Positions 13,281 through 41,433 of a DNA stretch of 42,077 nt are shown here, in pieces. This stretch comes from a virus (lineage: Duplodnaviria > Caudoviricetes). Each line of letters begins with the position of its first letter. The first letter of the stretch is position 1. Position numbers and translations under genes: made by a program. Below the pieces are notes generated by a model. The model did not search any database. It was not told the origin of the DNA and saw only the letters and a list, made by a program, of their open reading frames with translations. Location of the stretch: IMG/VR virus record IMGVR_UViG_3300043447_000048, positions 1-42,077 of that record, one strand, 5' to 3'.

Positions 13281-13285
13281 TTGAT

Positions 13286-16771: not shown

Positions 16772-16797
16772 ATCTTAAAGGTTTAATAGTTTAACTT

Positions 16798-16823
16798 TAT
16801 ATTTGTTATATTTATAATATAGA
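16798..16823 (+). promoter_or_regulatory. Possible promoter upstream of the large-cargo/RNAP operon
   Basis: The 54-nt intergenic gap contains TATATTTG, matching the Bacteroidota -7 element TAnnTTTG. It overlaps a weaker (about 16/24) match to the motif at 446 and 40510. Confidence 0.4.
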
Positions 16824-16825
16824 TA

Positions 16826-19404: not shown

Positions 19405-22400
19405 ATGGCAGATTTTGAGAACATCTTACCACCTGAAGGTGTAGAGCAAGGAATACCCAGTTCTTTTGCTGGATCAGATATGGTATTTACTAAGGGTGTA
19501 AATCCATTACCATTGAATGTACCTTTAGTACCATACACTGAAGATGTAAGTATACCAGCAGTTCCACAAGGTGGATTTTCTATTCAGTATGATAGTAATA
19601 ATCCTTTTGATATAACTAAACAAGTTTTAAGTTCTCCTATTACAGAATCTGATATTGTTTTTGAAAAGTCTAAAGTAAAACCCTTTCAATCTGGATATCA
19701 AAAAACTAATTTTAATAGATACTATAACGATACTGATAACTTCTATAAGTTAGGTTTTGATCCTCTATCAAATAATGATGAGATCTATAATCAGAATAGA
19801 TCTTGGTATGAAGATCTAGGTAGAGGTTTATTAGGTGTTCCAGCATTAGGATTATCTGTAGTTAAATCTAGTTACCGTGGAATGGGTGAAATGCTTACTG
19901 GTGATTTCTCTATGACAGATGAAATAGCTGCGGATGAGTTTGCCCAGATAATGGCTGAAAGAGGAAGTACTAAAGGTGGTCTTACTCAGTTCTCATCTAA
20001 TTTATTATTACAATCTGGTTTTGTTGCTGGTATTTTTGCAGATTACTTAGCTACTGAAGCTGTAATTGCAGGTAGTGTAGCATTAACTGAAGGCGCAACT
20101 TTACCTGCTGCTCTTGCTGCTAGTTCAGCAAAGACCGCACAGGCTGCTAGAAGTATAGCTAGTATGCGTAATTTATTTACAGCTGCTGGTGCTAGAGATG
20201 CTTATACTGCTATTAGAGGTTTAAACGCTACTGCCGTTGGTAGAGGTATTAAAGCTGCAGGTGAAGCACTTGTCCCAAGAACACTTAGCAATATTAAAAA
20301 TACAATTAATGCTGGTGACTCTGTAATCAATTATGCAAATGCTGCAAGAGGTATTGGTGATTTTATTTTAGATCTTAAACAAGTTGGTTACACTGTTGCT
20401 GAAGCTTCTATGGAAGGTGGTGCAGTTAAGAACGAGTTTATTGATGATAGAATTAATGAGTTCATTACTACTAATGGATACTATCCAGAACAAGAGGAAA
20501 TGAACAGAATATATGAGTTGGGTTCTGACGCTGGTTTTACAACAAGCGCTATTAACACTCCTCTTATATATATTACAAATGCTATTACCTTTAATAATTT
20601 ATTTAAAGGTAAATCAGCAATGTTGAATGCTCCAACAAATGATGTTATAGCTAGATCCTCTCTTACAGGAGAAAGGATAGTTGCTGATACAACAGGTGCA
20701 AGAATCTTAACAACTAAAGAAGCAGCTAAGACATTACTTAAACCAAAACAATACTTAAGTTTTGGAGCTCAGTATTTTAAGAAAAACTTATCTGAAGGTC
20801 TTCAGGAAATCTCACAGGAAATAACAGCCGGAGCTTCTAAAGATTATTACGAGAGATTATATGAAACACCAGAAGCTGGTGGAATTAGTATTTACTTAGC
20901 AGATGCTTTTGAGAACACAAAGAAACAAGCATCTATGCAAGGTCTGGAAGTATTTGCTTCTGGATTCTTAATGGGTGGTCTTACAGGTATTGCTGGTAAT
21001 TTAAGTAATGTATCTAGAAGAGCGGGATCTAATATCTATTACAATTATATAAAGAATGATCCTGAAAAGTATAATCAATTATATAAAGCAGAGCAAGATA
21101 GGTTTAAAGAGATTGTAGCAGAATTTGATGATGCTATTAAAAACGGAAATAAGATCCTTACTCTTGATGTAGAAAACTTATTATTACAAGCGAGACTTGG
21201 TACAGACATGGTAGATGCTAGAAAATCATTTGATGAGAAAGCATTCCATGATTTAAAAGACATGTCTAGATTTAATGCTATTTATACAGCATTAGAGGCC
21301 GGTAAGTTTGATATCTTAGTACAGAAGCTACAGGATATGAAACAGATGACTGGTGAAGAATTAAAACAGGCATTTGATTTAACAGAGGACGTTACTGCTG
21401 AAGAAGCAACAAAAGTATTAGATGTAGCTATTGAAAGAGCTCAGCAAATCAAAGAACAACATAAAGAGTTCTCTGATTATAAGAATCCTTTTAATCCTAA
21501 TAGATTTAGAAGAACTAATCTAACTGATCCTACTGTTAAAGAACAGTATGTAAAAGAAGTTATTAACTATAAAGCTTTTGAAGAAGCTAGAAAAATAGCT
21601 GTATTTAGTTTACACGGTAGAGAACAGGCCCAAAAAAGAATGGGTGATCTTACTAACAGACTTACTGAGATTAGTAATTTTGGTAAATTAACTTTTTCAG
21701 ATATAACTCCATTATTAAATGTAAATACTCTTGATCAAGAATTAGATTTATTAGATAGTGAGATTAAATCTTTGACAGGATCAACAGATAAAGAAGCTAT
21801 AAAGATTCTTGCTAGTAAAAAGAATAAGAAGAAAGCTCTTGAGTTATATAAAAAGAATCTTGAAAAAGCCGGAGATGTTTCAGATCCTCAAGAATTAAAA
21901 GATAAAAAATTCTTAAAAGAAGCTTTTGTTAAATACATTAATACTCTTTCCCAGGAAGCTGGTATTAATTTTTCTAAAGGTCAAGCTGAAGAAGCATATA
22001 ATATTTTAACAGATTACTATTCTTTAAATAAAGATCTTGTCCAGTTTACAGAGAACCTAAATACTTTATACGATCCTACTAGCTATTACGATTTAGTAAA
22101 TAGACTTGTAGAGCAGCAGAAGTATAGAAGAGGTAAGCAAACAGCTTACATGGAGAAATCTAGAAAAGCATTTATTAATGCCGTTAAGATTAGAGATTTT
22201 ATCCAGTATTTAGCTGATGCTGGTTATGGTGTAAAGTTATCATCTTTACCAAAAGATATCAGTAAAGAATATGATGAGTTTATCTCTACACTTACAGATG
22301 ATTTAGATATTGTATTTGTTGATTTTAAATCAGATAGAGAATTTGATAAATCAGATGTTAGATATGTATTTGTATTAGATCTTATAAACAAGTTTAATAA

Positions 22401-23775: not shown

Positions 23776-23779
23776 TAAT

Positions 23780-26700
23780 ATGAATTGCTCACTATCTCTT
23801 CCACAGCAGCAACAGTTTTATGCTAAAGTATTTAAAGACTTATCTGTAATTACAGATAATAAAACCTCATATGATTTAAAGAATTATATAAATGATTTTT
23901 ATGAGCAAGTAGTTGCGGCAAGTAATGATGCTGCTTTAGGATTAACCTATGTGCAGTTGTTACCTAGGATTGTAGGAACAATTATTAATAAGAATCCAAA
24001 TATTCGTAAACACTTTAGGGATAATAATATTAGTACTGATGATGTTTTAGATCTGCGTGATAGCTTTGAAGACATTATCAATGTAGAAAAGTATATCCAG
24101 GTAAAAGAATTAACTGCTGATAAGTTAGAACAGATTAGAAAGAAGGCCGGTATTGTTAGTTCTCAATTAGAGAAAGCATCTCAAACAGATGAAGACTTAG
24201 ATTTCCAAGCAAAACACTCATCTGGTTTAAATACAACTGGTCAAGAAGAAGAGGTAGATGCTGATGGTGAGTTTACCGGTGAAGCAGATCAAGATCCTGA
24301 AAAGATTGTAACCTTTGCTTTTATCCGTTCTATTATAGATAGATTAGAGAAACAGAATCTTGAGAATGCTAATAGCATGACTATTGAAGCATCTAATGGT
24401 ACTGTTGTAAAAGGTATCTATATGATACCTGTAACTACCTACACAAAGAGTGGTAGTGCTATTACACAATTAACTTTTGCTACATTAACCAAAGATGGCT
24501 ATAAGAAGTTATTTGTAAATGAGAGAGGTAATATCACAAACGTTGAAGGAGAAGATCAAGCTGAGGGTTCTTTAAACCCAATTATAGATTTTATTACTCC
24601 TAATACAATCAATGGTAAAAGAGATTTTATATTTACTGGAACTGGTGAAACTAGTTTAGCTCCCATTGATGAATTAGTAGAAAGAGTTATAAAGAATGCT
24701 GCATTAAACAACTTAGAAATTCCTGATGGTGCAGTATTAAAAAAACAATTTGAAGAAAAAAGGGCCCAAGAAGTTAAACTTGTAGATAAGTTTATCCGGA
24801 CCTATATCTCTGATAAAACACAAGTACTACCTTTAAGTATTATTGGTGGTAATTCTGGTTTTAGTTTAATGGCTGATCCAGGAACTAGATTAAGTGAAAT
24901 AAAAATTCCAGGAACTTTAGATATAGAGTTTGGTAAAAATGGCCGCACTTATATTAGAGTTGGTAAGTATGGTAATAAAATTCAAGTCTTTCCTGAAAAG
25001 ACATCATCAGAACTTGCACAAAATATTGCAAAGCTTTTAGCTGATACTAAAGTAAGTACAGCTATTAAGTTTGGTATCTTAGAAAAGATCTATAATATCA
25101 ATGATGATAATTTTAATGTTACATATGATAACACTCAAAAGAAACCGGTAATGGTTATCTATTCTGGAAAAGATGAGGTATACAACTCAGAGAATCCAGA
25201 GTTAACCGATGAAGGTTTTATTACAGATGTTTTAGCTGGTGTTTATATAAATATCTCTAAAGAGAATATTGACGGTAGTATTCAGTTACCTGATTACACA
25301 AGTGGTAAGTTAGTAAAGAGAAATACTCCTTATAATACTTTCATTACTAGAAATAGTAAAGTCTTTGTTGCATTACGTAATGATGGTAGCATCAAGTTCT
25401 TTAACCCTAGTTTACAGTATGAGTTCACTGTTGATGCATTAGAACAAATGTATCCAACTGAGAAGAAAGATGAACCTGTAGTTGAAGAAGAAACTAAAGA
25501 AGCTAAACCAAAAGCTAAAGCCAAACCTAAGACTGTAGTTAAGAATCAAAATGTAAATACTACACCTTCTGGTTTTAAAGGTAATATTGATACTACTCTT
25601 ATTGATGAGATTAACAAGAGCTTAAAGAGAGCTGGTTTTGAAACTGTAAACAGTACGCCAGAACAGATTGAAGAAATTAAAAGCTGGTATTCTTCATTAG
25701 AAGTAATGGTTGATGGAGAGAAGGTAAAGTTATCTACTCTTATTCCTGTAAAGGAAGCCTTTGCTTTAACTAACTCAGATGCGCTGGGTACATTTACATC
25801 TTCTGGTATTACGTTGTTTACAAAGGCCGGAAATAAAGATTACACCACATTGTATCATGAAGCTTGGCACGCATTCTCTCAGTTACTATTAACTAAAGAA
25901 CAAAAGCAAGAACTATATAACTCAGTAAGAAAAGGTGTTAAGAGTTTAGCTAATGCAACTGATAAGCAAGTAGAAGAATATTTGGCTGAAGACTTTAGAG
26001 GTTATGTCTTATCTGAGGGTAAGAAAATTCTAGTTCCAGCTAATGAGAATATCTTTCAAAAGTTATGGCGGATTATAAAAACATTTTTTACCGGTCAAAC
26101 TGATATAGTAGATCCTACTGTTGTACCATTAGTAAAGCAGTTATATGATAACTTAAGATTGGGTAATCTATTTGAGTATCAGTACTCAGTAGATAACATG
26201 CAGTTTGGTAAACTCTATAGAGGTATTGATCCATTAAATGAAGAAGAGGCTGGTATTAGTTTAGCAGATAGCATCCTTATTAATGAATCAATAGATGGTG
26301 CATTCTCAGAAATTATAGAAAGCTCTGGCTTAAATGTTTCTGCAATTTACACAGATCCTAGAGCTTTAAATTTCTTATACGCTAGTACTAAAGATTACTT
26401 TCAACAGATTCTAGATGAAACAATTGCTAGAGTTGAAAATGATCCTGAAGGTACTGATACTGTAGATAGAAATAATATCCGGATACTAGAGTATGCAATT
26501 AATAACTTTGGTGACTTTAATAACGTACTTAAAGGAACTGAAAAGAATGGTGTTATAGTATATCACAGACAGAAGTCTAAGTATTTAGCATTTGAAGCTA
26601 AAGTATTAGATGCTGAAGAAGATAAATCAGATCCAGGTATTGATAGTTTTGATCGTACAGGTAATGATAAATCATTAAAAGAGTTAGCATCTAAGCAAGC

Positions 26701-29700
26701 TTTATATATGGTTAAGAGTTTATATCAAGTAAACTCAAAAGGAGAGCCTATTAAGAACAGATTAGGTTTTAATAAATTAGTTGATTTTAGTAAAGCATGG
26801 AGTACTGTATCTAAAACTTTAATTAACTCTACTAGCTTTGATGAAGTTTATACTAAACTTATTGAATTACAAGCTTCTTTCCCTGAAGCTGCACAATTGC
26901 TAGTTAAGTTAGGTGATCCATCACAGTCTCAAACTAGTAATGCTAACTTTAAAAGATGGTTAGGATTTACTCAGACATTTAATAAAACTGTTGTACCTAT
27001 TATAGAACAAAGGATATCTATACAGGATGCAGTTGAAGATGAGCCCCGTAAAATATCAACTCTTATTCAAAGAGCTACTAGTGATACTAATAAGATTGCT
27101 AATACATTCCGTTCTAAGTTCTTAGTTAACCGTGGTAAGTATGTAATTAGAAAAAAGGGATCTCTACCTATATTAAATATTAATAAAGTATTAGAAGATT
27201 TTCCTTCAGTAAATAAATACAATGTTCTTAAATTCTTAAAGGCCGTTGGGTTTTATTTAGATGATAATAAAACATTAGTTAATGCTTTAGAAAACTCAAT
27301 ACTGGATAGAAAAAGTAAAGATACTTTTATTCAGTATGATTATATGATTGAGGCTTTAGAAAAAGCTAAAGAAAATAAAGTAATTATTTCAGATCCTATC
27401 AGATTCTTTAGAGATCCTAAGTTGGGTAACCAATCAGGAACTGTAAGTAAATTATTAACTCTCCAGGCAAGATATAGTGCTAGTGATTTTAATACTAGTA
27501 TTATGAATCCTGAGGGTAATATGGAGTATGAAACACAACAGAGAAACTCTTTAACTCAGATAATTGATGGTCTTAATAAAATAACTAATATTGACCAGAT
27601 GATAGATGATCCAGAGTTTGAACATCTTAGTGTTTATCATCCAAGTATTAATCCTTATTCTAAACACTCTTATATTATTAAGTCTTTATTTGATGAAGCC
27701 GGTAATAGAAGAAAAGATGTAGTTCTAAGTTTAGAAAACTTAAGTGGTGTACGTTCAGATAGAAATGGTATTACTGTTGAAGGTATTAAAACTAATAAGC
27801 TTAATAAGTACGATAAATTCTTATTTGATGTACATGCTATTATCTTAGGAGCAACTCCTGAGTTACCTCGTCATGCTAGTAAAAGTTCTTCTTTTGGTAT
27901 TTACATGAGTAAGTACTATTCTGAGAATGGTACAGATGGTCTTATCTTATCTATTAAAGATACTGCTAGATATGGACATGAGGCAGCTATGCCAATGATT
28001 CTTAATTATTTATCTGCAGAGTTAGAAAGAATATGGTATGTAAATAACATAGATTCTTTGCAAACTGTAGATTCATTAAAGAAAAGTGGTAATAAGATTG
28101 TTGGTTTTGACAGCGTTTTAACAAAAGCTACAAAAGATAAACTATATAAGTTAGTAGAAGATGCTAATTCTATAGATGATATCACTTACTCTGAAGAATT
28201 AGAGAAAGATATTTTTAAAGATAGTCTTGCTTACTTCTCCGGACAAATTAAAAACAACTATAAGATCTGGACTAAGATATCAAGTGTCATGAACTCTGTA
28301 TTACTAAGTCCTGAAATTAGGAGTAAGATTGCAGAAGAAACTAGAATTAATAGAGGTTTGGATAAAGGAAATAAATTTGCTAATGATTCCCAAGCTCAAT
28401 TAGAATTAGTTAACCAGGTATTTACTTATAACAGTTGGTTTAATAACTATGAGACACAGTTATTCTACGGTGATGCATCACAGTTTAACAATGATAAAGA
28501 AGAGTTCCATAAGCGTAATGCATCAATTGCATCTACCGGTGAATTCTCAATACTTGATGATTACACAACTAACTATTTAAATGCTACAAGTAATAATACA
28601 TATGCTGCATCTATAGGCTTAGGTAAACCTATCTTTAAAAGCGATGTAAATACTACAGTATTAAATGATGCTGAACCTAATTCTGTATACTATGATCACT
28701 ATAAAAAGATCTTATTAGATCAAGGTGTATCAGAAAGCAGAGTAGAGACTATATTAAAACCTTATAAAGGTATTAAAGAGGGTGACGGTCAGGGTTGGAT
28801 TACTTTTGATTTTTACCGTAACTTCTTAAGATCATTAAATAAATGGTCAGATGCACAAGAAGAGTTGTACAACCAAGTTATTAATGATCCTGATTCTGTA
28901 GATCCTAAAAAAGTATCTGAGTTTTTCCCAGTACTTAAGGCTAGTTATTATGGTCCATTAAAGACTGAAAAACTTAATGTATCTGGATTGCATAAGTTTT
29001 CATTGATGCCTTTAGTTCCTAGTGTTATTAAAGGAACTAATTTAGAGCAATTCCATAAACAATTGCTAGAACAGAATATTGGATATGCTCTTTATAAGTC
29101 AGGTAGTAAGATTTCTACAATTACATTAGAGGATGGTACAATTCCAAATATGTATACTGATCTAGAGAAGCGTGAATTATACACTGGTCAATATGCTATT
29201 AATCCTATTAACTTAAACTTCTTTAAGAATCAGTTAGATATTGCTCCATACTTTAAAAACAAAGTAACCCTCGCTTCTCAGTTGCGTACAATTATTGAGA
29301 CTAACCTTTATGAAAAAGGTAAGGCAATAACTAAAGAGGCTGATGTTGCTGTTAAAAGATATGAGAAGTCTATTGATAACTATGTAAAATATTACAAACA
29401 AAAGTTATTTAAAGAGGTAGGTTTAGAGTTTAATGCTTCTGGTAAATTAGTTAAAGGAGATCCTAAAGATCTTATTAAAGCTATCCAAAAAGAGTTAATC
29501 CGTTTAGAGGTTCCTGAACATCAAATGGATATTTTAGATCTTAATGAAGATGGTACTTTAAAATATGACTTTGATAGTATTATTAACTCTAATGCTATTG
29601 AAAAACAATTGGTTGCTATTATTGAAAGAAAGATTGTTAGACCTACAGTTAAAGGAGAGCAGTTAGTACAGGTATCTAGTTCTGGGTTTGAAAAGCCTAG

Positions 29701-32700
29701 GTTTACAAAACCAACTGAAGAAGAGTTATTAAAGTATGGTACAAATGGTCTTGCTTTTTATGATGTTGTAAATGGTAAGATTACAGCCATGCAAGTTAAA
29801 GTTGCATTACAAGGTGACTTCATAAAGCTTCTTGCATTAACTCATACAGATGGTAATAAAATACTTACTAGAGAAAGACTTAATGAAATGCTTAAAGACA
29901 GTACATGGAAAGAACGCAATGGTGATGCTATCAAAATGATGGGTGTGCGTATTCCGGTACAAGGTCTTAACTCTATTGAATACATGGAGATTGCAGAGTT
30001 TTTACCTACAGAAGCTGGTAGTATTGTTATTGTTCCTACTGAGTTGGTTGCTAAATCAGGTGGTGACTTTGATATTGATAAGTTAAGTATACTAATGCCA
30101 AACATTAGTATTACTACTGATGAATTACTTATATTAGAAGAAGAAAGTGGTTTAGATCTTTCAGATGCTATTAATTTTCAAGCTGGTGTAACAGCTGATG
30201 ATACTAATATAAGAAATATTGAGAATGAAATACTTAAGTCTATGATTGGAATCATGGAGCTTAAGGAAAACTTCTTGCAACTTATTACACCTAACGAAAC
30301 GGATATTGTTAAACCAATTGCTGATGAGTTAGCTCAGTTTAATAGAGAGTATGATGCTAGAAAAAAGACAGCTAACCAGGATCCATCATTTAAAACTATA
30401 TCTCCTACTAGAATATTTGAAACAGAGTATAATCTTTATAAGCATGAATCTAATAATATTGGTAAAATAACATTAGGTATTGGTGCTGTATCAAACAAGT
30501 ACTCAGTTATCTTAAACCGTGTAGGTGCATACTTAAATCAAACATACACCTTCCTTGATAATAAAGGAAAGAAAAAGACTGCTAAGAACCGCATACTTCT
30601 TAAACATAATAAATCTGATAAGAAGATCTCTTTGTCAGATTTAAAATCAGAGGATGCTGCGCATTACATTTCAGATGTAATCTCTCAGCTTATGAACGGT
30701 TGGGTGGATATTGAAAAAGATGCATGGGTGTTTGATATGAATGCTATCTATGAGTTATCACCAGTATTGCTGTACATGTTACAGGCTGGTGTTAATGTAG
30801 AGACTGCTGCTTATTTCTTATCTCAACCAATGATCCGGGATTATATCTCTACCTATAGAGTATTAACTGGCATGTATAGTAAAGCTTTAGATACAACTGA
30901 AGATAGTGGTAAAGGTGCTGGATTCTTAAAGTACAAAGCAAAGAATTATATTATTAATAAGTATGGTATTTTTGATGCAGATCATAAAGCACAACTTAAA
31001 AAATTAATAAAAGATCCTTTCTTACTTAAACAGTTATATCAAGCCAATGCTGCAAAAAATCCATTAGGTGGTAGAAAATCTATAACTCCTGCTGTAGATA
31101 TCATAGTTAAAGCATATAATGTATTTGCTTTATCTGATAAGAATGTAAAAGACATAGTAAAAAATTATGATACTAAGAGTCCTTTAGCTAAATTATCATT
31201 CTTACATTTCTTAGAGATAGAAGATCAATCTAAAGTAATGAGAGAGATCTCTTCTTCTACTAACGTAGATACAAAGAAGTCAGGTAACTTATTTCAGGCT
31301 AAGAGTAGAATTAGTAAAATAGAAGATTTAGAGGGTGGTGCTAGACTACCAGAAGAAATTGTAGAGAAGATACAAGAGCAATCATCTATTGCACCATTCT
31401 TTATTCAGGACTATATCTTAAATCTATTTAAAGATTATTTCCCATTAAGAGCTAGTGATAAAATAAATGGTTACTTAACTTATATTATTAATAATAACTA
31501 CAATGATATCTATGAAGCCTATGGTGATATAGAAAAGTTTGTAGAGTTATTTAGAAACGATCTATTGCAGTTTATTATACAGAATAGTATTGGTAGTGTA
31601 AACATTAATACTGTTAAAGATTATAAAGGATATAGTATTAATGATTCGGTTACTGTAGAAAAAGTAAGAGGTCTTAGAAGAAGTGCTGTTTACTTAGATG
31701 GTGTTATATACATTGACAGAGCTAAACTACGTGATGAATATAATAAGAAAACTTATTCTAAAGCAGCATATGAAGAAACTGGCTTAGCTAAATTACCGGG
31801 AGATAGGCGCACTGATGTGATTCCTTTGTTTACTTCTGAAAAGCAATATGCCGCATTTGTACTTGAAAGAGAATACTTAAGAGGTACAAGAGAGCAAGGT
31901 GACTTAGCTGATGATTTGTATGAGAGTTCTTTAGTTGATGATGCTTTAGCAAATACTTATAATCTTAAAACTATGTTCTTTGGAAATAATAGTTTTCCAG
32001 ATAAGTATGAAGCTATAAAATCTATTATAGGAGAAGATAAGTATTTATTATTCAATTACTTAGTCTATGATTCACAAGCTATTAAAACAGCTGGTAAAAA
32101 CACGGTTATTAAAAACTTGCGTTTAACTGGTGATGTTAAAGATCCTGATTTCTTAGAATCTTTAAATGCAGAGTTTGAAGAGTTATCAGATGTAACAGTA
32201 AATAAAGTTTCTGATCCTGTACTTAATAGAGAAATATCAGAGTTCTTCCAAAAACTATCTATATATGGATTTATGCAATCTGGTATGAATGCATCATACT
32301 TATCATTTGTACCAATTCTTTCTAGTAATAACTTTAAAGATATTATTAAAACTAATATTGATGAGTTTAGTAAAGTAATTAATGGTGAGAATGGTGATAT
32401 AGCATTTTTTAAATACTATGATGTATTTCAAAAACAAAACTCTAGAAAGAACAATATCAAGTACAGATTTAAGAACTATGTTATAGATAGTGTTATTAGT
32501 AAAATGGGAGATCCGGTTCCAAAACTTCCTGAAGGAACATCTAGTACTATGACTCCTAGAGTGTATACATTTAAATATAATAAGATGGGTACTATTGGTT
32601 TTATAAACAAATATGCTGGACTTATTGGTGTATACAATGGTGCTAAAGATGGTAGCGGTACTAATGTTATTAGTTCTGATACTTACATGGGTAATACAAA

Positions 32701-33205
32701 TAAAGTAACTGGTACAACTATACCATTACCAATATTTGAATCTTATACTGGTAAGCCTACATATTTAAATTCAGCAAACAATGCGGATAACATTAAACTT
32801 GTAAGAGACAGTATCTCTCAACTTGTAGAAATGTATGAAGCGGGTAAGACATTGTTATTTAATCAAGAGGGTTATGGTATCACTACAGATGATATTAATG
32901 TAGATGTTGCTGCATATATTGAGTTATCTAAAGAATTATACTATAACTTTGGATATTTAAATCCTGTTTTTGCAGAAGATCCTGACTTTATGGAGTATAT
33001 TTATTCTGTACAACCTATCAATCAAATCTTTGATGAAGATCCAGAAACGGCTCCTGATCAAGAAGATGATATTGTAGAAGAAGTAGAGATTACTTTAATT
33101 GATGGTAATAATTATCCTGCATCAGCTATCAACTCAGAAATGTTAGAAAACATGGGTTATGATGAAGATACAATTGGTGAAATATTAAAACAAATTTGTG
33201 GCTAA
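23780..33205 (+). CDS. Virion-packaged single-chain double-psi-beta-barrel RNA polymerase (crAss-like) with N-terminal zincin domain
   Basis: 3141 aa. Catalytic-loop motif GGDFDIDK (DFDID at 30065-30079) is preceded by GVRIPVQG (R at 29948); DGQGWIT and HKFSLMPL are present. HEAWH (25856-25870) with downstream EEYLAEDF marks the zincin. Confidence 0.92.
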   Translation: MNCSLSLPQQQQFYAKVFKDLSVITDNKTSYDLKNYINDFYEQVVAASNDAALGLTYVQLLPRIVGTIINKNPNIRKHFRDNNISTDDVLDLRDSFEDIINVEKYIQVKELTADKLEQIRKKAGIVSSQLEKASQTDEDLDFQAKHSSGLNTTGQEEEVDADGEFTGEADQDPEKIVTFAFIRSIIDRLEKQNLENANSMTIEASNGTVVKGIYMIPVTTYTKSGSAITQLTFATLTKDGYKKLFVNERGNITNVEGEDQAEGSLNPIIDFITPNTINGKRDFIFTGTGETSLAPIDELVERVIKNAALNNLEIPDGAVLKKQFEEKRAQEVKLVDKFIRTYISDKTQVLPLSIIGGNSGFSLMADPGTRLSEIKIPGTLDIEFGKNGRTYIRVGKYGNKIQVFPEKTSSELAQNIAKLLADTKVSTAIKFGILEKIYNINDDNFNVTYDNTQKKPVMVIYSGKDEVYNSENPELTDEGFITDVLAGVYINISKENIDGSIQLPDYTSGKLVKRNTPYNTFITRNSKVFVALRNDGSIKFFNPSLQYEFTVDALEQMYPTEKKDEPVVEEETKEAKPKAKAKPKTVVKNQNVNTTPSGFKGNIDTTLIDEINKSLKRAGFETVNSTPEQIEEIKSWYSSLEVMVDGEKVKLSTLIPVKEAFALTNSDALGTFTSSGITLFTKAGNKDYTTLYHEAWHAFSQLLLTKEQKQELYNSVRKGVKSLANATDKQVEEYLAEDFRGYVLSEGKKILVPANENIFQKLWRIIKTFFTGQTDIVDPTVVPLVKQLYDNLRLGNLFEYQYSVDNMQFGKLYRGIDPLNEEEAGISLADSILINESIDGAFSEIIESSGLNVSAIYTDPRALNFLYASTKDYFQQILDETIARVENDPEGTDTVDRNNIRILEYAINNFGDFNNVLKGTEKNGVIVYHRQKSKYLAFEAKVLDAEEDKSDPGIDSFDRTGNDKSLKELASKQALYMVKSLYQVNSKGEPIKNRLGFNKLVDFSKAWSTVSKTLINSTSFDEVYTKLIELQASFPEAAQLLVKLGDPSQSQTSNANFKRWLGFTQTFNKTVVPIIEQRISIQDAVEDEPRKISTLIQRATSDTNKIANTFRSKFLVNRGKYVIRKKGSLPILNINKVLEDFPSVNKYNVLKFLKAVGFYLDDNKTLVNALENSILDRKSKDTFIQYDYMIEALEKAKENKVIISDPIRFFRDPKLGNQSGTVSKLLTLQARYSASDFNTSIMNPEGNMEYETQQRNSLTQIIDGLNKITNIDQMIDDPEFEHLSVYHPSINPYSKHSYIIKSLFDEAGNRRKDVVLSLENLSGVRSDRNGITVEGIKTNKLNKYDKFLFDVHAIILGATPELPRHASKSSSFGIYMSKYYSENGTDGLILSIKDTARYGHEAAMPMILNYLSAELERIWYVNNIDSLQTVDSLKKSGNKIVGFDSVLTKATKDKLYKLVEDANSIDDITYSEELEKDIFKDSLAYFSGQIKNNYKIWTKISSVMNSVLLSPEIRSKIAEETRINRGLDKGNKFANDSQAQLELVNQVFTYNSWFNNYETQLFYGDASQFNNDKEEFHKRNASIASTGEFSILDDYTTNYLNATSNNTYAASIGLGKPIFKSDVNTTVLNDAEPNSVYYDHYKKILLDQGVSESRVETILKPYKGIKEGDGQGWITFDFYRNFLRSLNKWSDAQEELYNQVINDPDSVDPKKVSEFFPVLKASYYGPLKTEKLNVSGLHKFSLMPLVPSVIKGTNLEQFHKQLLEQNIGYALYKSGSKISTITLEDGTIPNMYTDLEKRELYTGQYAINPINLNFFKNQLDIAPYFKNKVTLASQLRTIIETNLYEKGKAITKEADVAVKRYEKSIDNYVKYYKQKLFKEVGLEFNASGKLVKGDPKDLIKAIQKELIRLEVPEHQMDILDLNEDGTLKYDFDSIINSNAIEKQLVAIIERKIVRPTVKGEQLVQVSSSGFEKPRFTKPTEEELLKYGTNGLAFYDVVNGKITAMQVKVALQGDFIKLLALTHTDGNKILTRERLNEMLKDSTWKERNGDAIKMMGVRIPVQGLNSIEYMEIAEFLPTEAGSIVIVPTELVAKSGGDFDIDKLSILMPNISITTDELLILEEESGLDLSDAINFQAGVTADDTNIRNIENEILKSMIGIMELKENFLQLITPNETDIVKPIADELAQFNREYDARKKTANQDPSFKTISPTRIFETEYNLYKHESNNIGKITLGIGAVSNKYSVILNRVGAYLNQTYTFLDNKGKKKTAKNRILLKHNKSDKKISLSDLKSEDAAHYISDVISQLMNGWVDIEKDAWVFDMNAIYELSPVLLYMLQAGVNVETAAYFLSQPMIRDYISTYRVLTGMYSKALDTTEDSGKGAGFLKYKAKNYIINKYGIFDADHKAQLKKLIKDPFLLKQLYQANAAKNPLGGRKSITPAVDIIVKAYNVFALSDKNVKDIVKNYDTKSPLAKLSFLHFLEIEDQSKVMREISSSTNVDTKKSGNLFQAKSRISKIEDLEGGARLPEEIVEKIQEQSSIAPFFIQDYILNLFKDYFPLRASDKINGYLTYIINNNYNDIYEAYGDIEKFVELFRNDLLQFIIQNSIGSVNINTVKDYKGYSINDSVTVEKVRGLRRSAVYLDGVIYIDRAKLRDEYNKKTYSKAAYEETGLAKLPGDRRTDVIPLFTSEKQYAAFVLEREYLRGTREQGDLADDLYESSLVDDALANTYNLKTMFFGNNSFPDKYEAIKSIIGEDKYLLFNYLVYDSQAIKTAGKNTVIKNLRLTGDVKDPDFLESLNAEFEELSDVTVNKVSDPVLNREISEFFQKLSIYGFMQSGMNASYLSFVPILSSNNFKDIIKTNIDEFSKVINGENGDIAFFKYYDVFQKQNSRKNNIKYRFKNYVIDSVISKMGDPVPKLPEGTSSTMTPRVYTFKYNKMGTIGFINKYAGLIGVYNGAKDGSGTNVISSDTYMGNTNKVTGTTIPLPIFESYTGKPTYLNSANNADNIKLVRDSISQLVEMYEAGKTLLFNQEGYGITTDDINVDVAAYIELSKELYYNFGYLNPVFAEDPDFMEYIYSVQPINQIFDEDPETAPDQEDDIVEEVEITLIDGNNYPASAINSEMLENMGYDEDTIGEILKQICG

Positions 33206-34956
33206 TGGCAACATGTCCTATAAAATCAGATCCTAACTTTCAGAGGTTAGAACAAATACAAGGTACAAAGATGGCTACTTATCTATGGGATAAGTTTGAA
33301 GGTGATCCTCCAGCTACTGTATATAGTAATGTAGTAAATAGAAAAAGTAAATCTGTACCGTTAAATCCTAAACTAACTGCAGGAACTAATAAAATATTAT
33401 TAGATTTTGTACAGGCTTTAAATATTAAAGTTGAAGGTGGTAATGCAGCCGAAGCAATACTTAGTAATGTTAAAGGTAATCCTTTAGCTGGTTTTGATTT
33501 ATTACAAAAATATATGGCCATCAGAGATGGTGGAGAAGAAATAGTTCCTAAACAGGTTGCTAATGTTCTACTAAGTTTCTTAGGTAAGAAAAGTGAACTA
33601 TATAATAATTTATGGTTTAATATTAAAAGCTGGTCTAAATATAAAGAACTATATAAATCATATAGAGAAAAACTAGAGGGTACTACAGAATTAGAGGATA
33701 TCCTTACTAAAGAAAATTTAGATAAAGATAGTGATCTACCAGCCTATCTTGTTGATATGTATGCAGATAGTAATTTTAATTTTACTGCACATAAACAAGT
33801 AGTAATTGATTTTATTACAGAAGGACTTACTAACTTTTATGGTAGAGACTTAAATGATTTCATCAGAAGTGAGAGAGGTAACCCAGATGTAGATAAAGCC
33901 TATTTTCAGAAAAGAGGATTTAAATATAATCCTTATGATAAAGAAAGCAGTATCTTAAAAAAGTTATGGTATAAGCTTAATGATTTTTTCTTATCCCTAT
34001 TTAGAAATAAATTTGATAAACTAAATCAAAAAGAGTTAGAAGACCGTGTATTAGATTTAGTAGATGATATCTATAAGGGTAATTATAAAGCTTTTACACG
34101 TGGTGTTGAAAGAGTTGGAGATTCTCTACTAGTACCTGATAAAAGTAATCCGGAGAAGTTTAACCAATTAGAGATTAAGAAATACCAGCAGACATTATCT
34201 AAAGATGCTAAAGCTAAATCAATTATAGATTTTATGCTTAATAATCCGGATATGGGTTATAAGCTCAGTGGTTCTATGGTTCTTAGATACTACGGTACTG
34301 TATATAGAGCACTAGATGAAGATATCCATGATATTGATGGTGTAATAGAATTAAAAACTATTCAGTCTGAAAAAAATTATGATGAGCTTTATGGTTGGTT
34401 ACATCATAAAGGAATATATATTAAAGATCAAAAAGAGTTTACCGCTAAGATTAAAGAATTTATAGAAGATCAAAACTGGTATAAATCTTTTACTGAAAAA
34501 TATCCGACCTTTGAAATGACCAATGCTTTTATTGGTAAAGATCATAAAGCTAACCAAGAGACAGTGACTGTACAAGGTGTTATACCTATTTTAGATGATG
34601 CTGGTAATAAACAGTATGATGATAAAGGTAATCTTATAGCATATACATTTGATTTCTTTGTACGTACTGCAGAAGGTAATTATCCAGAAATATTTGATAA
34701 CTACTTTAAAGACTGGAAACAGATCTTTGAAGCTAAAATTAAAATGGGTAGATCAAAAGATATAGTAGATTTAATTTACTATGATCCTTTTATAGATAAT
34801 AAATTTAAATTTACAAACGCAGGATATAGATATTTCTCCTTTGCTGATGGTTCTACAGCTTTTAATGCTGATGAAAATGCAGAGCCAGTTAATACATATG
34901 CCCCTATAGGATATCCTGAAGTTCAAGATGAAACATACAATAGTTGCAAATTATGA
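33205..34956 (+). CDS. Pol-beta-superfamily nucleotidyltransferase (AbiEii/MenT-like) fused to a degenerate zincin-like N-terminal domain
   Basis: 583 aa from ATG 33205 (TAATG overlap with the RNAP stop). Motifs LSGSMVLRYYG...HDIDGVI (hGS...DxD), a third acidic strand FDFFV, and C-terminal AKIKMGRSKDIVDL (K...RxKDxxD). Confidence 0.7.
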   Translation: MATCPIKSDPNFQRLEQIQGTKMATYLWDKFEGDPPATVYSNVVNRKSKSVPLNPKLTAGTNKILLDFVQALNIKVEGGNAAEAILSNVKGNPLAGFDLLQKYMAIRDGGEEIVPKQVANVLLSFLGKKSELYNNLWFNIKSWSKYKELYKSYREKLEGTTELEDILTKENLDKDSDLPAYLVDMYADSNFNFTAHKQVVIDFITEGLTNFYGRDLNDFIRSERGNPDVDKAYFQKRGFKYNPYDKESSILKKLWYKLNDFFLSLFRNKFDKLNQKELEDRVLDLVDDIYKGNYKAFTRGVERVGDSLLVPDKSNPEKFNQLEIKKYQQTLSKDAKAKSIIDFMLNNPDMGYKLSGSMVLRYYGTVYRALDEDIHDIDGVIELKTIQSEKNYDELYGWLHHKGIYIKDQKEFTAKIKEFIEDQNWYKSFTEKYPTFEMTNAFIGKDHKANQETVTVQGVIPILDDAGNKQYDDKGNLIAYTFDFFVRTAEGNYPEIFDNYFKDWKQIFEAKIKMGRSKDIVDLIYYDPFIDNKFKFTNAGYRYFSFADGSTAFNADENAEPVNTYAPIGYPEVQDETYNSCKL

Positions 34957-37900
34957 GTAAGTGTAGATTAGATATACAGAATGACGTATTAAAAACGTAT
35001 AAGAAAGCTTTAGCTAAAGAGGTTGGTCAATTCCTATCTCCAACTGATAGTTTAAATACGTTTTATGTAAATACCGGAGGTAATACACAAGCAGGAGCAG
35101 CATCTATTTCAAAAGCTGTATTAGGATTAAATGAATATTGGAGAACTAACATGGCTGAGTTTATTACTTGGGATGGTGATGCCAGAGTATTTGTTAATCC
35201 TCCTAAGTATGTTATTGATCATTATTGGGAAGAATATAAAAAGAATAATAATATAACTGAAGAAAGCCCGGACTATTACCGTATTGCTGATGAAGACTTT
35301 TTAAATAGTTTATTTCCTTCTGTAGAATCACAAGAGAATGTTAAAGCTCAAGAGATAGCAACTAAGTTTGCTAATAATCTAGCGTCTCAGACAGGTATTA
35401 ACTACAAAATGATATCTGCTATTCAAGCAGCTGAGCTTACAAAAGATACAACTGCTCCCTGGAATGGTGAGCCAGCTTTTTATTATCAAGATACAGTATA
35501 CTTTATTGAGAATGGATTTAAATTAAATCAGGTATTGCATGAATATGCGCACCCAATTGTTAGAAGTTTATACTTAAACAATTATGATTTATTTAATAAT
35601 CTATATAATCAGATTATTAGTACTGAAGAAGGTACTGCAATTGTAAATACAGTTACTGAATTATATCCTGAATATAATATAACTGATCCAAACTTTGCAC
35701 AGGAAGTATTTGTAAGAGCTTTAGAACAAGCAGCGGTACAGAAAGCTAATAAGATATCTTCTACTACAGGCTTTAATTCTTTTATCTCTAACTTATTATT
35801 TGCTATTAAGCAGTTAATAAGAAAAGTATTTGGTAAAGGTATAAAGATTGAGAAGCTAGATGTAAATACCACATTAGACCAATTAGCAAACATGCTAGTT
35901 AGTGAGAACTTTATTCTTACAACTGAAGTAATTACTCCAGAAGATTTAGTTCTTTACTCAAAGAATAATAAAACTCTTTATGCTGATTTAGATAAAGTAG
36001 ATACTGATGCACTTGTACAAGTAGTTAACAGATTTTTTTCTAATTCTAAATCTCAATTAAGCCGGATCAGAACTAATCAAAACTACTCCGATTTTGTAGA
36101 TACCATTACAACTGAGTCTGGACGTTCTATACTTAAAGATATTGTAGACAACTTACGTGTTGCTGAAACTACTACAGTAGATGATAAAGTAAAGAAGTTT
36201 AAAGACGATGTAGATAAAAGAGAGAAGCAAGTTGTTTCACTTGTAAGAAGCTCTATACAGACTGATGTATTATTAGATAGAATAGTTGATAAACTATTTG
36301 AGATGCAAAGTATGTCTGATACAAAAGAGGTTATTAATCAGACTTTCTATTATGATATCTTATTACGTAACTGGAACAAGTTCATACAAGAGACCATTAA
36401 TGGTTTAACTGATTCCGGATTGCGCACAGATAGTTCTTTATTTGCATTATTCTCTAGAATGGCTAAGAAAGCAGAACAATCAGAAAGACTTATTAATAAT
36501 ATTTACAAGAAAGGCATTGGTGGAGTATTGACAGAACAGATAGAGCCATTAGCTAAAAACGTAGATAAATACTTTACTGATAAGCTTGAGATTCTTAAAT
36601 CTAAGAATGCATCTGCAAAAGAAATAAAGAAGGTACAGGATGAATGGGATAGATTAAAACTAAACCGTGCTACTATTGATGATTACTTATCCGGTATGCG
36701 TGGTGATGTTAATGCTTTATCTGCATACGTAGAAGCATTTGCCAGTTCACCAGATCCTATTATATCAAGCTTCTCTGTATTTCTAGATAACGCTTATACA
36801 GATGTAGAACTGAAGGCTAAGAAGAATAAAGATGATTTCTTGAATGATCTTCTACCAGCATTAAAAGAGGCTGGATACTCTGATAAGAATATCTCTGAGT
36901 TAATGTCAGAACTAACTTTTGAAGAAGAGGTTATTATTCGTGATAGAGATGGTAATGCTAAAACCTTTAAAAAGTTAGTATTACTTAATCCATTTAAAGC
37001 TTTTGAAAAAGTTATTACTCAGTTCCAATTTGATATTGAAGATGCCAAAAGGGTTGGTGATATAGAAAAAGCTAGATTACTTAACAAACAGTTCAGACAA
37101 TTCTCTCGTGATTATATGCATGATCAGTTTGTACCTGAATTCTATACTAAAGAAAAGATCTATGATTCTGAGTTAGGTTCTATTATCTATCAGAGAAAGC
37201 AAGATATCTTAGCTGATATTGCTGATATAGATCAGAGAGTATTTGAAGATCTTACAGAAGAAGATGCTTTTGAAGAAAAGAAGATACTTTGGAAGAAGTA
37301 TAGTCAGTTAGCTTCTCTACGTGATGAAGCCGGTAAATTAAAAACTGGTGATGAGTTAGAGATGGCCAAGATAGAAAAACAGTATAGAGAAGAATCTAGA
37401 AAGTTCTATGAGTGGAAAGAAATAACTGGTCTGTTTGAGTTTAAATTAAATCAATTTAAGCAAGACTTATTAGACCAAGGTCTTACTGTAGATTCTGAAG
37501 AGTTTAAAGATAATGTCAATGACTGGATAGATGCCAATACAAGAGTTTCTATTAAGTCAGATTTCTATGATAAGAAGCAAGCTATCTTAACAAAGATTAA
37601 AGCTATCACTGATACACTTCCTGCAAACGTTGCTAGTAAAGTTGAGCAAGGAAAATTATGGGAAGAGCTAATTGATATTGTTATTGGTTTTAGAGATGAT
37701 GATGGTCAGCCTGTAGGATCAGAGATGTCTGAAGAAAGACTTAAGCGTGTTAAAGAACTTCAGGAAGAGATTTTAAAGATTAAAGATAACATGGCCACAT
37801 TCAGTGGTTTGAGTAAACTACAGTTTGAAAGATATCTAGAACTTGCAAAATTAATTAAGAGCAAAAAAGCTAGTATAAAAGATAAAGAAGAGTTTAAAGA

Positions 37901-40511
37901 GTTAGATGATATCAAAGGTGAGAATGGTGTAGATAAGCTTACACAAAAAGCTTTAAAGAGATTATATAGTGAGTTAGCAGATATGCAGTATAAGTCTCCC
38001 ACAGATGACTACTTTGCTGTTTTCAATAATAAACTAGAAGGTATTGATCAAACTAAACTTGCAAACTTCTCTATATCAGAGATTAACATGGATAACTATG
38101 ATAATTTCTTAAAGCCTGGTTTCTTATCTAAGTATTTTAAAGTTAGTCCTGAGTTTAAAGAATGGTTTTTAGCAAACCATATTATGACTGAGAGATATAA
38201 CTATAAGACTAAGAAAGATGAGAGAGTCTATGAGAGATTATACGTTTGGAGTGTAACTCAGCCGGCTAATGAAGAAGATTACAATACTTATAAGTACAAT
38301 GATGTAAACCCATCTACAGGTGAGATTACTGAAGTTACTTTAGATAAAGTACCAAAGATAGATTTCTACAGAAGAGCTGTTAAAAAAGAATACAAAACTG
38401 GTTACAATAAAACAACTGGTAAAGTAGAGCGTCAAGTAGGTGTACATGTAGATAACAGAGGTAATTGGTTACCACGTACAATGGCTCAAGGCGCTAAAGA
38501 TGATTCTTATATCAATAAAGCTTACTTTGATCTTAAACAGAATAGTCCGGCCAAAGCAAAAGTCCTTGATACTATTGTAAAGTATACACTGTTATTCCAG
38601 GAAGACAAAAGTAAGTACGGAAAACTGTACTTAGATGTACCTAGATTCAGAAAACTTAAGAGTGAATTAGTAGGTGGTAGTTTAAATAGAAGCGCTGCTA
38701 AAGTTAAAACCTTTATCAAACAAGTAAAGGATTCTGTTACTAAAACAGAGGATGACTTTGATCAAGGCTTTAACTATAATGAGTCATTTAACTTAGTAAG
38801 AGCAGACATGTTTGATGAAGAGATTTCTTCTATTCCGGTAAAAGGTTTGTATAAGTTAGATGTAGATCAGGTATCATTAAACGTACCGTACTCTATGTTG
38901 CAATACATGTTCTCATTAGAACACCAGAAAAAGCTTATTGAATTAAATCCAATTGCTCAAGCTTTACAGAAGGTTGTAAATAATAAAGAGAATGCTATTA
39001 AAGATACCTCTAAGGTAAATGGATATAACTGGGTAACTCAGAATATTAAATCTTACATTCCTAAAAAAGGTAAGAACATAAGAGCTGAAGCTATCAATAC
39101 TCTTATTGAAAGAGAGTTTAAAGGTCAAACTAGAGAAGGTTGGTTATCTGAATCAACTACTTTAAGTAAAGCTGTAGATGTATTACAATCACAATCTACG
39201 TTTGCTATGTTTGCATTTAACGTTTTACCATCAGCATTTAAAAACTTTGGTGGTGCCGTTACACAAATGATTATTGAGTCAGGTGGTGGTAAATATCTTA
39301 ACAAGCGTTCTTATGTACAAGGTCAAACTAAAGCCTTAAAGATAATGACTGATATCTCAGCTAATATCTATAATCCAGGTGAGAAAAGTGTTGACTATCA
39401 ATTAGTTGAAGTTTTTGATCCAATTAAAGGTAGATTCCAAGAACGTTTTGGTGCTGAGTTTGGTAGATCTATTGGTACTGATTTAGCAGATAGTATTATG
39501 TTTGGTGCTGGTAAAGCTAGATCTGGTGGTGTTTATACTGCGCCTAGAAAGTGGTTAGAAAATGAGGGTACTCTTTCTTTGTTTGCCGGTATGATGATCT
39601 TTAAAAAGATACCACAAACAATCAATGGTCAAACTAATATGATTAGTTACATAGATGCATGGGAGAAAGATGGTCAAGGTATCATTAAATTAAAACCAGG
39701 TATTGATGAAACTTATGCTCCAGGTGGTACAGAATTTAAAGCAATGCGTAATACTATCCAGGAAAAGAGTAATGATCTGCAGGGTGCATATTCTACAATG
39801 GATAAAGTAATGCTTGATAAATATGCAGTATGGCGTATGTTCTCAGGATTAAGGCGCTTCTTTACAAGAATGTTTGTAAACAGATTTAGTGCTCTGAGAT
39901 ATAACTCACGTACTGGAGATATGTCAGAAGGTTACTATAGAGTGTTTGCTAGATTTGTAAAAGACTTTATTTCTAGAGCTGCTTCAGGTAATATGTATAT
40001 GACTGATGATGAAACCTATGCTACTAAAAAAATTCTAACAGAAGGTATTAGTATTACTTTATTGGCACTTATAATTTCTTACTTGTTTGGATATGATCCA
40101 GATGATGAAGAAAGATTTGAAAAGATGCGCCAAAGAAGTGGTGATTTATTATCTGATGACTTTAATGCAGCGGGTTGGTTAACTAACCATGCATTAGTTG
40201 TAGCACTTGGAACAAGACAAGAAACTATTACATTCTTAAACCCTAGAGAATATGTTGGTTTAGTTTACTCAGGAGGTGCTCCAACATTAGGACCTGTAAT
40301 GGATAAGTATAAGGATGCCGGAGTAGATTTAATGCACTTGATTACTAATGATAACCGTGCTTATTATACTAGAGATGTAGGACCTTATTCTTGGCAAAAA
40401 GAAAATGCGCCTAAAATCTTTAATGATCTTGGATATTTATTTGGATTTACTGGTAATCAGATTGATCCAGTTAAAGCTTTGAAAGGTGTAGAGTTCCAAA
40501 CTAGAAGATAA
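34953..40511 (+). CDS. Large virion cargo protein with N-terminal zincin (HExxH) domain
   Basis: 1852 aa from ATG 34953 (ATGA overlap). VLHEYAH at 35538-35552 with downstream QEVFV; long helical body; C-terminal LQGAY...RRFF...EGYY region with a hydrophobic helix, typical of the large protein that follows crAss-like RNAPs. Confidence 0.7.
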   Translation: MSKCRLDIQNDVLKTYKKALAKEVGQFLSPTDSLNTFYVNTGGNTQAGAASISKAVLGLNEYWRTNMAEFITWDGDARVFVNPPKYVIDHYWEEYKKNNNITEESPDYYRIADEDFLNSLFPSVESQENVKAQEIATKFANNLASQTGINYKMISAIQAAELTKDTTAPWNGEPAFYYQDTVYFIENGFKLNQVLHEYAHPIVRSLYLNNYDLFNNLYNQIISTEEGTAIVNTVTELYPEYNITDPNFAQEVFVRALEQAAVQKANKISSTTGFNSFISNLLFAIKQLIRKVFGKGIKIEKLDVNTTLDQLANMLVSENFILTTEVITPEDLVLYSKNNKTLYADLDKVDTDALVQVVNRFFSNSKSQLSRIRTNQNYSDFVDTITTESGRSILKDIVDNLRVAETTTVDDKVKKFKDDVDKREKQVVSLVRSSIQTDVLLDRIVDKLFEMQSMSDTKEVINQTFYYDILLRNWNKFIQETINGLTDSGLRTDSSLFALFSRMAKKAEQSERLINNIYKKGIGGVLTEQIEPLAKNVDKYFTDKLEILKSKNASAKEIKKVQDEWDRLKLNRATIDDYLSGMRGDVNALSAYVEAFASSPDPIISSFSVFLDNAYTDVELKAKKNKDDFLNDLLPALKEAGYSDKNISELMSELTFEEEVIIRDRDGNAKTFKKLVLLNPFKAFEKVITQFQFDIEDAKRVGDIEKARLLNKQFRQFSRDYMHDQFVPEFYTKEKIYDSELGSIIYQRKQDILADIADIDQRVFEDLTEEDAFEEKKILWKKYSQLASLRDEAGKLKTGDELEMAKIEKQYREESRKFYEWKEITGLFEFKLNQFKQDLLDQGLTVDSEEFKDNVNDWIDANTRVSIKSDFYDKKQAILTKIKAITDTLPANVASKVEQGKLWEELIDIVIGFRDDDGQPVGSEMSEERLKRVKELQEEILKIKDNMATFSGLSKLQFERYLELAKLIKSKKASIKDKEEFKELDDIKGENGVDKLTQKALKRLYSELADMQYKSPTDDYFAVFNNKLEGIDQTKLANFSISEINMDNYDNFLKPGFLSKYFKVSPEFKEWFLANHIMTERYNYKTKKDERVYERLYVWSVTQPANEEDYNTYKYNDVNPSTGEITEVTLDKVPKIDFYRRAVKKEYKTGYNKTTGKVERQVGVHVDNRGNWLPRTMAQGAKDDSYINKAYFDLKQNSPAKAKVLDTIVKYTLLFQEDKSKYGKLYLDVPRFRKLKSELVGGSLNRSAAKVKTFIKQVKDSVTKTEDDFDQGFNYNESFNLVRADMFDEEISSIPVKGLYKLDVDQVSLNVPYSMLQYMFSLEHQKKLIELNPIAQALQKVVNNKENAIKDTSKVNGYNWVTQNIKSYIPKKGKNIRAEAINTLIEREFKGQTREGWLSESTTLSKAVDVLQSQSTFAMFAFNVLPSAFKNFGGAVTQMIIESGGGKYLNKRSYVQGQTKALKIMTDISANIYNPGEKSVDYQLVEVFDPIKGRFQERFGAEFGRSIGTDLADSIMFGAGKARSGGVYTAPRKWLENEGTLSLFAGMMIFKKIPQTINGQTNMISYIDAWEKDGQGIIKLKPGIDETYAPGGTEFKAMRNTIQEKSNDLQGAYSTMDKVMLDKYAVWRMFSGLRRFFTRMFVNRFSALRYNSRTGDMSEGYYRVFARFVKDFISRAASGNMYMTDDETYATKKILTEGISITLLALIISYLFGYDPDDEERFEKMRQRSGDLLSDDFNAAGWLTNHALVVALGTRQETITFLNPREYVGLVYSGGAPTLGPVMDKYKDAGVDLMHLITNDNRAYYTRDVGPYSWQKENAPKIFNDLGYLFGFTGNQIDPVKALKGVEFQTRR

Positions 40512-40534: not shown

Positions 40535-40593
40535 CCCTAAAAACCTTCTAGGGCTGCATCCCGAATTAACTGCGGTAAAAAACAAATACCGTA
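40535..40593 (+). promoter_or_regulatory. Structured 5' leader of the holin-like gene (two hairpins)
   Basis: CCCTA(40535-39)/TAGGG(40549-53) stem and TGCGGTA(40571-77)/TACCGTA(40587-93) stem. The second stem includes the A of the start codon. Confidence 0.45.
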
Positions 40594-40841: not shown

Positions 40842-40843
40842 TT

Positions 40844-41431: not shown

Positions 41432-41433
41432 TC

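Follow-up and report, generated by a model that had tools for sequence, protein, structure and literature searches.

Cysteines at the facing ends of giant cargo proteins in crAss-like phages: a proposed disulfide-locked chain that includes the virion RNA polymerase

Four giant proteins and their six cysteines

The window, that is, the whole stretch of 42,077 nucleotides analysed here (IMG/VR record IMGVR_UViG_3300043447_000048), covers the tail and cargo genes of a crAss-like phage. Matches above the Pfam cut-offs to PF25702, PF24228 and PF25731 mark ring and muzzle genes (ring 2, ring 1 and muzzle families) of crass type, which lie upstream of the chain described below. Four ORFs at 19405-40511 sum to 7,032 aa and 797 kDa and contain six Cys in total. 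The features of the locus are as follows.

13286..19393, + strand: a pair of upstream genes (1161 and 855 aa) without any Cys, probably cargo 1/2 to judge from their position; not part of the chain, taken as control
19405..23775, + strand: chain start, 1456 aa, a crAss001 gp47-like cargo protein; its sole Cys is the last residue, 1456 (codon 23770-23772)
23780..33205, + strand: virion RNA polymerase (RNAP), 3141 aa; Cys3 (23786) and Cys3140 (33197)
23780..24097, + strand: head module of the RNAP, aa 1-106; modelled as an all-helical bundle whose short N-terminal arm carries Cys3
within 23780..33205, + strand: RNAP motifs DFDID (aa 2096) and HEAWH (aa 693)
33205..34956, + strand: optional middle link, 583 aa from ATG; Cys4 (33214) and Cys581 (34945)
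34953..40511, + strand: chain end, 1852 aa from ATG, homologue of phi14:2 gp65 / crAss001 gp49; its sole Cys is residue 4 (34962)
within 34953..40511, + strand: chain-end motif HEYAH (aa 196)

A sequence-only reading of this DNA had placed each of the six Cys no more than four residues from a terminus, facing one another at the gene junctions, and the Cys positions in the ORFs agree with it, codon coordinates included (23770/23786, 33197/33214 and 34945/34962). The same is true of the missing N-end Cys on the first protein and the missing C-end Cys on the last, and no internal Cys overlooked by eye was found among the 7,032 residues. The chance that six Cys would all fall within four residues of the eight ends is ~9e-15, as calculated post hoc. 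The upstream proteins had also been described as using Cys freely, which is true of the rings (5-6 Cys) and the muzzle (17) but not of the four nearest upstream genes (2, 2, 0 and 0). Since the 1161- and 855-aa genes are Cys-free and the two genes preceding them have 2 Cys each, Cys depletion extends beyond the chain; what sets the 1161- and 855-aa genes apart is that terminal Cys are absent.

In Crassvirales, the vRNAP module is virion cargo that has become one polyprotein by fusion in some phages (bioRxiv 10.1101/2020.03.07.982082; PMC10172136). The window carries the elements of this module: a gp66-like RNAP with DFDxD, a gp65/gp49 homologue, a gp67/gp47 homologue (gp47 only) and the ring and muzzle genes. 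The 3141-aa RNAP matches phi14:2 gp66 (E 7e-20) and crAss002 RNAP (E 6e-8, tblastn), and its DFDID motif is also present in phi14:2 gp66 (bioRxiv 10.1101/2020.03.07.982082). The profile of the 1852-aa family matches crAss001 gp49 (E 1.5e-58) and phi14:2 gp65 (E 1e-46), and that of the 1456-aa family matches crAss001 gp47 (E 3e-10); phi14:2 gp67 is not matched by the latter profile (pairwise E 0.26), so that "gp67-like" would describe the position of the 1456-aa protein only. In the same way, the cargo 1/2 label of the 1161- and 855-aa proteins is positional because they give no profile match to crAss001 gp45/gp46. None of the four chain proteins has a match in Pfam (E 0.01) or PHROGs (E 0.001), and a PDB sequence search with the RNAP returned 0 matches at E 0.1. 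Homologues of the chain proteins have been found in virions by mass spectrometry (PMC10172136), and those of the window are likely virion cargo. The phi14:2 gp67-gp66-gp65 and crAss001 gp47/gp50/gp49 modules share a homologous RNAP and end protein with the window, which differs from both by its fourth, optional link.

Two observations concern the surroundings of the chain. After it, at 40593-41715, lie a hydrophobic 82-aa ORF, an endolysin-like 195-aa ORF matching phrog_33083 (E 3e-12) and a 93-aa ORF, likely forming a lysis cassette. At 7243-16771, an x-x-x-GG motif picked by eye (MQTGG, MAYGG, YQDGG, AQMGG) occurs 3, 11 and 4 times in the 1391-, 618- and 1161-aa genes versus 0-2 times in the giants, and is possibly a processing or capsid-targeting signal.

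Junction cysteines across Crassvirales

Among the best 120 of 826 matches to the RNAP, the window's own included, a C-terminal Cys is present in 120/120 and an N-terminal Cys in 112/120, with 28 internal Cys in 388,748 aa. Six of the eight N-terminal misses are short and look N-truncated (P0085 by BLAST; two begin at a recognisable internal Met) and another, P0106, is a fusion with the start protein from which internal Cys are absent; for the last, P0110, no explanation was found among the 120 RNAPs.

At the level of loci, a set of 160 that includes the window was reduced to 91 at <90% core identity (median RNAP-core identity 46%), and protein roles were assigned by homology with 60 residues trimmed off each end. 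The start protein has a Cys at 0/72 N-ends and 74/74 C-ends, the RNAP at 86/88 and 84/84, the insert at 7/7 and 7/7, and the end protein at 77/77 and 0/74, respectively. Homologues of the 855-aa upstream control have none (N 0/20, C 0/25), and unrelated ORFs at the same loci carry terminal Cys at 23/127 N-ends and 31/186 C-ends. Internal Cys number 27 in ~623,000 chain residues. Both RNAP N-end misses fall at reading-frame breaks; the apparent exceptions L058 and L165 are frame breaks, and L187 is a single in-frame stop. The position of the junction Cys varies, from residue 3 to 7 on the N-side and from -1 to -8 on the C-side.

A divergent set (107 loci, 104 RNAP ORFs, 68 non-redundant) includes gene fusions; five of its N counts accept a later Met start, and fusions with the start protein are under-detected. 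The start protein again has Cys at its C-end only (N 0/18, C 28/28) and the end protein at its N-end only (N 45/45, C 0/44). Start+RNAP fusions have a Cys at 0/6 N-ends and 6/6 C-ends, RNAP+end fusions at 10/10 N-ends and 0/10 C-ends, and the two full start+RNAP+end fusions (N 0/2, C 0/2) lack Cys altogether:

L197:3977-18664: fully fused polyprotein, 4895 aa, zero Cys
L244:1340-18259: fully fused polyprotein, 5639 aa, zero Cys

RNAP ORFs with no detected fusion partner have an N Cys in 35/46 and a C Cys in 40/45, and most of the misses look like undetected fusions or intron splits. Indeed, 9 of the 11 N misses are long ORFs alongside which a separate start gene is not seen, suggesting fusion; L263 is probably not a crassvirus, and for L199 no explanation was found in the divergent set. 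On the C side, two misses are splits of intron type in which the Cys is found at the end of the second piece; L240 resembles an undetected fusion. In L010, L227 and L266 the RNAP ORF is broken exactly at the catalytic motif, and its outer ends carry Cys. Within the RNAP gap of L227 and L266 there is a ~220-aa Cys-rich ORF, the gap being likely an intron with a homing nuclease. The expectation of the sequence-only reading, that terminal Cys would occur only at internal junctions and change with gene fusion or fission, is supported over related loci (the 91 and 68 sets).

Divergent loci often have extra internal Cys, up to 39 (L223), which could mispair and to that extent count against a disulfide chain. 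In L183, L201, L203, L218, L220, L223, L226, L232 and L265 the terminal Cys are kept together with 9-39 internal Cys in the RNAP ORF; such extra Cys might track anaerobic hosts. As a separate observation, coding length rises by >25% if TAG is read through in L173, L192-L194, L206, L220, L259 and L264, or TGA in L189, L207, L209, L222 and L261, as in recoded crassviruses.

The pattern extends to cultured phages. In phi14:2, gp67/66/65 hold just four Cys between them, each at a facing end (gp67 C1797 / gp66 C3; gp66 C2179 / gp65 C3). The crAss001 pairs are gp47 C2339 / gp50 C5 and gp50 C2404 / gp49 C5, with one internal residue, C1334, in gp50; gp47 is encoded on the opposite strand and keeps its Cys, so that the rule follows chain topology and not gene adjacency. 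The head-to-tail linkage in gene order first suggested for the window therefore has to be reworded. Pairing in chain order is strongly supported by sequence comparison (conservation, fusion and fission, and the co-variation described below), but gene order does not hold, as crAss001 gp47 illustrates.

The same arrangements bear on the idea that the Cys are a by-product of a DNA signal at gene junctions superimposed on general Cys depletion, an idea to which we give hardly any credence. TGT accounts for 304/335 junction Cys codons versus 95/128 in other genes and 27/32 in the genes upstream of the window's chain, which would fit such a signal. However, GAT:GAC is 460:45 in the same genes, i.e., the codon bias is a general NNT bias, TGC is used 31 times, and the distance to the start or stop varies. 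Moreover, junction Cys are kept in genes that are on opposite strands and separated by 11-17 kb, which largely refutes the signal, and where other genes intervene: at L212:4787-8749, two unrelated genes separate the start protein from an RNAP+end fusion and both junction Cys are kept.

Matched and exchangeable ends

Some loci amount to natural experiments. In L028, the first ~600 aa of the RNAP are a separate protein, and a Cys pair is present at the break. Three other loci have adaptors of 242-261 aa that are almost only a head and a tail module, and in a fourth these two ends flank a body of ~420 aa that is related to the window's 583-aa insert:

L034:19587-20315: empty adaptor, head + tail only
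L058:20169-20954: empty adaptor, head + tail only
L067:17760-18518: empty adaptor, head + tail only
L032:19725-21692: loaded adaptor, the same two ends around a ~420-aa body

L031 has no adaptor, and its RNAP tail is a homologue of the tail carried by the three empty adaptors. Elsewhere the window's 583-aa body forms an internal part of end proteins (e.g., L044, L055) or of RNAPs (L077, L082) by fusion. Furthermore, P0007, known as a protein only, shares 91% identity with the window's RNAP but carries at its C-end the tail of the window's insert (77% over 26 aa); loss of the insert with retention of the coupling to the end protein would give this arrangement.

As for what the insert may do, residues G356-S357, D376, D378 and D483 are invariant in 20 rows (GS...DhD plus a third Asp), and the fold matches of its model, although weak (best E 0.065; mean pLDDT 58), are mostly to the Pol-beta family. 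Together they make a nucleotidyltransferase likely, and the 583-aa body likely holds a putative domain of Pol-beta type; no fold match reached E<=0.001, no Pfam NTase match was obtained, and its Atlas features give 0.94 to a cluster with 11% Poly_A_pol_cat. Extra domains also occur directly before the tail in the RNAP homologues P0030, P0066 and P0036, namely a 2OG-Fe(II) oxygenase (E 2e-17), an ART-PolyVal (E 6e-11) and a DUF7831.

Junction ends group into recurring tail and head types. By partial Mantel tests over 79 loci, with RNAP core identity controlled and the Cys itself left out, the RNAP tail follows the next head (r 0.40, p 0.001) and not its own (r -0.09), and the start tail follows the RNAP head (r 0.33) and not the later head (r 0.02). 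The RNAP tail/next head correlation is 0.37 after control for the end protein's core (72 loci), and the signal falls to half 15 residues upstream of the tail. Over the same 66 loci a Cys-free control junction gives r 0.07 versus 0.30 at the test junction, a comparison in which Cys anchoring favours the test junctions. The nearest tail in a distant phage predicts the class of the partner head in 59/76 cases, versus 41/76 by phylogeny and a mean of 18.8 (maximum 32) in shuffles, the head classes being patterns chosen post hoc with 14/90 junctions dropped as "other". These sequence statistics show that a given tail type goes together with a given type of head on the next protein, to an extent inflated by linkage, since tail and head adjoin in DNA; at the 20 loci with an inverted arrangement, the non-adjacent cognate pair gives r 0.08 (p 0.16) and the adjacent pair r 0.02.

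The heads inside one phage are unlike each other (local scores 13-29 in the eight insert-bearing loci listed), as an ordered chain needs. Charge complementarity is not seen, tails averaging -2 to -3 and heads ~-0.5, and head profiles find no internal RNAP head in fused proteins, the 7 weak internal matches being to one other class. AlphaFold2 confidently predicts that the RNAP head (aa 1-106) folds as a helical bundle with Cys3 on a short arm (mean pLDDT 86.9, pTM 0.77, 85-row alignment), and this module likely receives the upstream tail; fold searches with it returned no clear match (Foldseek best E 1.4; VIA best Z 6.4, a score that helical bundles often reach).

The terminal Cys could also be thought to close each protein on itself, N-end to C-end, or to be sites of modification such as lipidation or ligation chemistry. 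The RNAP and the inserts, having one Cys per end, would allow closure, but the start and end proteins have a single Cys, and it is the next head, not its own, that the RNAP tail tracks. The variable Cys positions found here (N 3-7; C -1 to -8) speak against modification chemistries that need a fixed residue position. Both possibilities are, in our opinion, very improbable.

The probable bond and its possible role in ejection

A solved precedent comes from cyanopodophage A4, in which the C-terminal helix of gp27 lies in a cleft of gp26 and a Cys1715-Cys5 disulfide was modelled by cryo-EM (PMC12002296, PDB 9k3a). The gp27/gp26 ring surrounds the portal; the authors write that the disulfide "further stabilized" the core and raise a chain reaction on ejection (PMC12002296). 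In the A-4L genome, the two Cys of this bond are the sole Cys of both proteins (1715/1717 and 5/1114), and Pf-WMP3 has the same layout:

L267:16766-25269 (A-4L): sole-Cys facing-end layout; upstream peptidase with CxxC near its C-end
L269:6665-14752 (Pf-WMP3): sole-Cys facing-end layout; upstream peptidase with CxxC near its C-end

Like the crassvirus chain, the A4 pair consists of adjacent giant ejection proteins with their sole Cys at facing ends; unlike it, the pair has one junction, lacks an RNAP and belongs to Saffermanviridae. In its available text, the A4 paper is silent on Cys exclusivity, multi-link chains, matched end classes and reductive release (PMC12002296). A4 gp27/gp26 have no BLASTP match at E 0.01 against 671 locus proteins, they are unmatched by the chain-start and chain-end profiles, and gp27 finds only cyanophages by tblastn. 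Because of this lack of BLAST similarity, and because it has a single junction, the A4 pair is an analogy: the crassvirus chain would work like it and is not a homologous member. By that analogy, inter-protein disulfides between the crassvirus chain proteins are quite probable; for the crAss001 virion, the disulfide passages in the available text concern tail and vertex proteins (inter-subunit) only (PMC10172136).

The sequence-only reading had proposed either disulfides or metal bridges, of which the analogy favours the former. In a metal bridge the two Cys would bind Zn or another metal, and a second junction copy would supply further ligands. A reducing cytoplasm allows thiolate-metal sites to form, which would suit packaging, and an inter-chain Cys4 site is compatible with the sequences. 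Nevertheless, two-Cys ends occur at 0/176 junctions and His lies near either Cys in only 7/176, which leaves a metal site without support, and the solved A4 analogue was modelled as a disulfide (PMC12002296); we consider this bridge improbable.

We propose, with a probability of roughly 0.6 for the account as a whole, that the four proteins dock tail-to-head and are locked by one disulfide per junction into a 0.8-MDa chain, which would stand in for a fused polyprotein. Such a chain would account for Cys found only at facing ends, kept over Crassvirales, lost on fusion and present at fission, and each tail type would pair with a given type of head on the protein that follows. In the reducing cytoplasm disulfides are probably unable to drive packaging, so that non-covalent docking modules likely come first; tail and head would dock there and ensure equal copy numbers at packaging. 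After lysis the Cys pair would oxidise, as the A4 structure and the crAss001 virion disulfides suggest. The proteins would then have to unfold to pass tail constrictions of <50 A. Docking contacts would be lost there, leaving the disulfide to hold the train together and in fixed order during passage, until host cytoplasmic reductants freed the parts. Optional enzyme cargo could join the train by gaining a head and a tail. In crAss001, most of the cargo is unresolved in the map, unfolding is needed for ejection, and its order is said to depend on packing and mutual interactions (PMC10172136).

The strongest form of this proposal is a plug-and-play train in which an exclusive tail/head code orders the giants, disulfides hold the thread, reductants uncouple it, and any enzyme with a head and a tail is injected with the RNAP ahead of all phage gene expression; we hold it possible, at somewhat less than even odds. 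An unlikely, though by no means negligible, alternative is that the disulfides are real and only staple the packed capsid core, ejection order not being set by them and the parts perhaps staying linked or reassembling in the cell. The A4 ring at the portal, with the gp27 helix in the gp26 cleft, fits such a staple (PMC12002296), and comparative data show the topology of linkage, not its timing. However, a staple would not need strict siting at chain ends or loss exactly on gene fusion, free ends are without Cys in all cases (0/72, 0/74), and the A4 paper itself raises the chain reaction (PMC12002296).

Part of the proposed disulfide-locked chain is already known: ejected proteins are depleted of Cys (PMC11445570), and A4 has a single disulfide from tail to head. 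In Schitoviridae, ejected giants including the vRNAP (N4 gp50, DEV gp71-73) are near-totally Cys-depleted, which is ascribed to periplasm passage (PMC11445570). The crassvirus proteins resemble them in this near-total depletion, vRNAP included, and differ in that Schitoviridae hold the domains in one polypeptide with no Cys, whereas crassviruses keep Cys at the junctions of separate proteins. What is new is the proposed multi-link chain, in which the RNAP is included, gene fusion takes the place of links, and matched ends and adaptors can be exchanged. The docking domains of PKS and the COM domains of NRPS are familiar examples of short matched C- and N-terminal modules that order separate giants, are swappable and replace fusion; these are non-covalent and serve catalysis, and the likeness drawn here to the crassvirus ends is one of function.

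That such a mechanism had not been described, as the sequence-only reading supposed, stands for crassviruses within the literature searched but not in general, the A4 gp27-gp26 bond having been published (PMC12002296). A literature search on crassvirus cysteine, disulfide, cargo and ejection, with most subscription papers outside its scope, found no description of such a chain, and none is contained in the available text of the crAss001 paper or of an N4 paper (PMC13434306); the available text of the phi14:2 preprint (bioRxiv 10.1101/2020.03.07.982082) does not mention cysteine or disulfide, nor does that of the supplement to PMC10172136 mention gp47, gp50, disulfide or cysteine.

The order and copy number of the ~5 MDa of unfolded crassvirus cargo were left open by the crAss001 structure paper (PMC10172136), and an N4 paper of 2026 calls crassvirus ejection proteins unresolved (PMC13434306). 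The pattern described here narrows the question to four named residues in each of phi14:2 and crAss001. If true, the disulfide-locked chain would account for the block being encoded as a single polypeptide in some phages and as two, three or four in others, and would show how optional enzymes enter an injected payload; the layout shared with unrelated cyanopodophages suggests a general principle.
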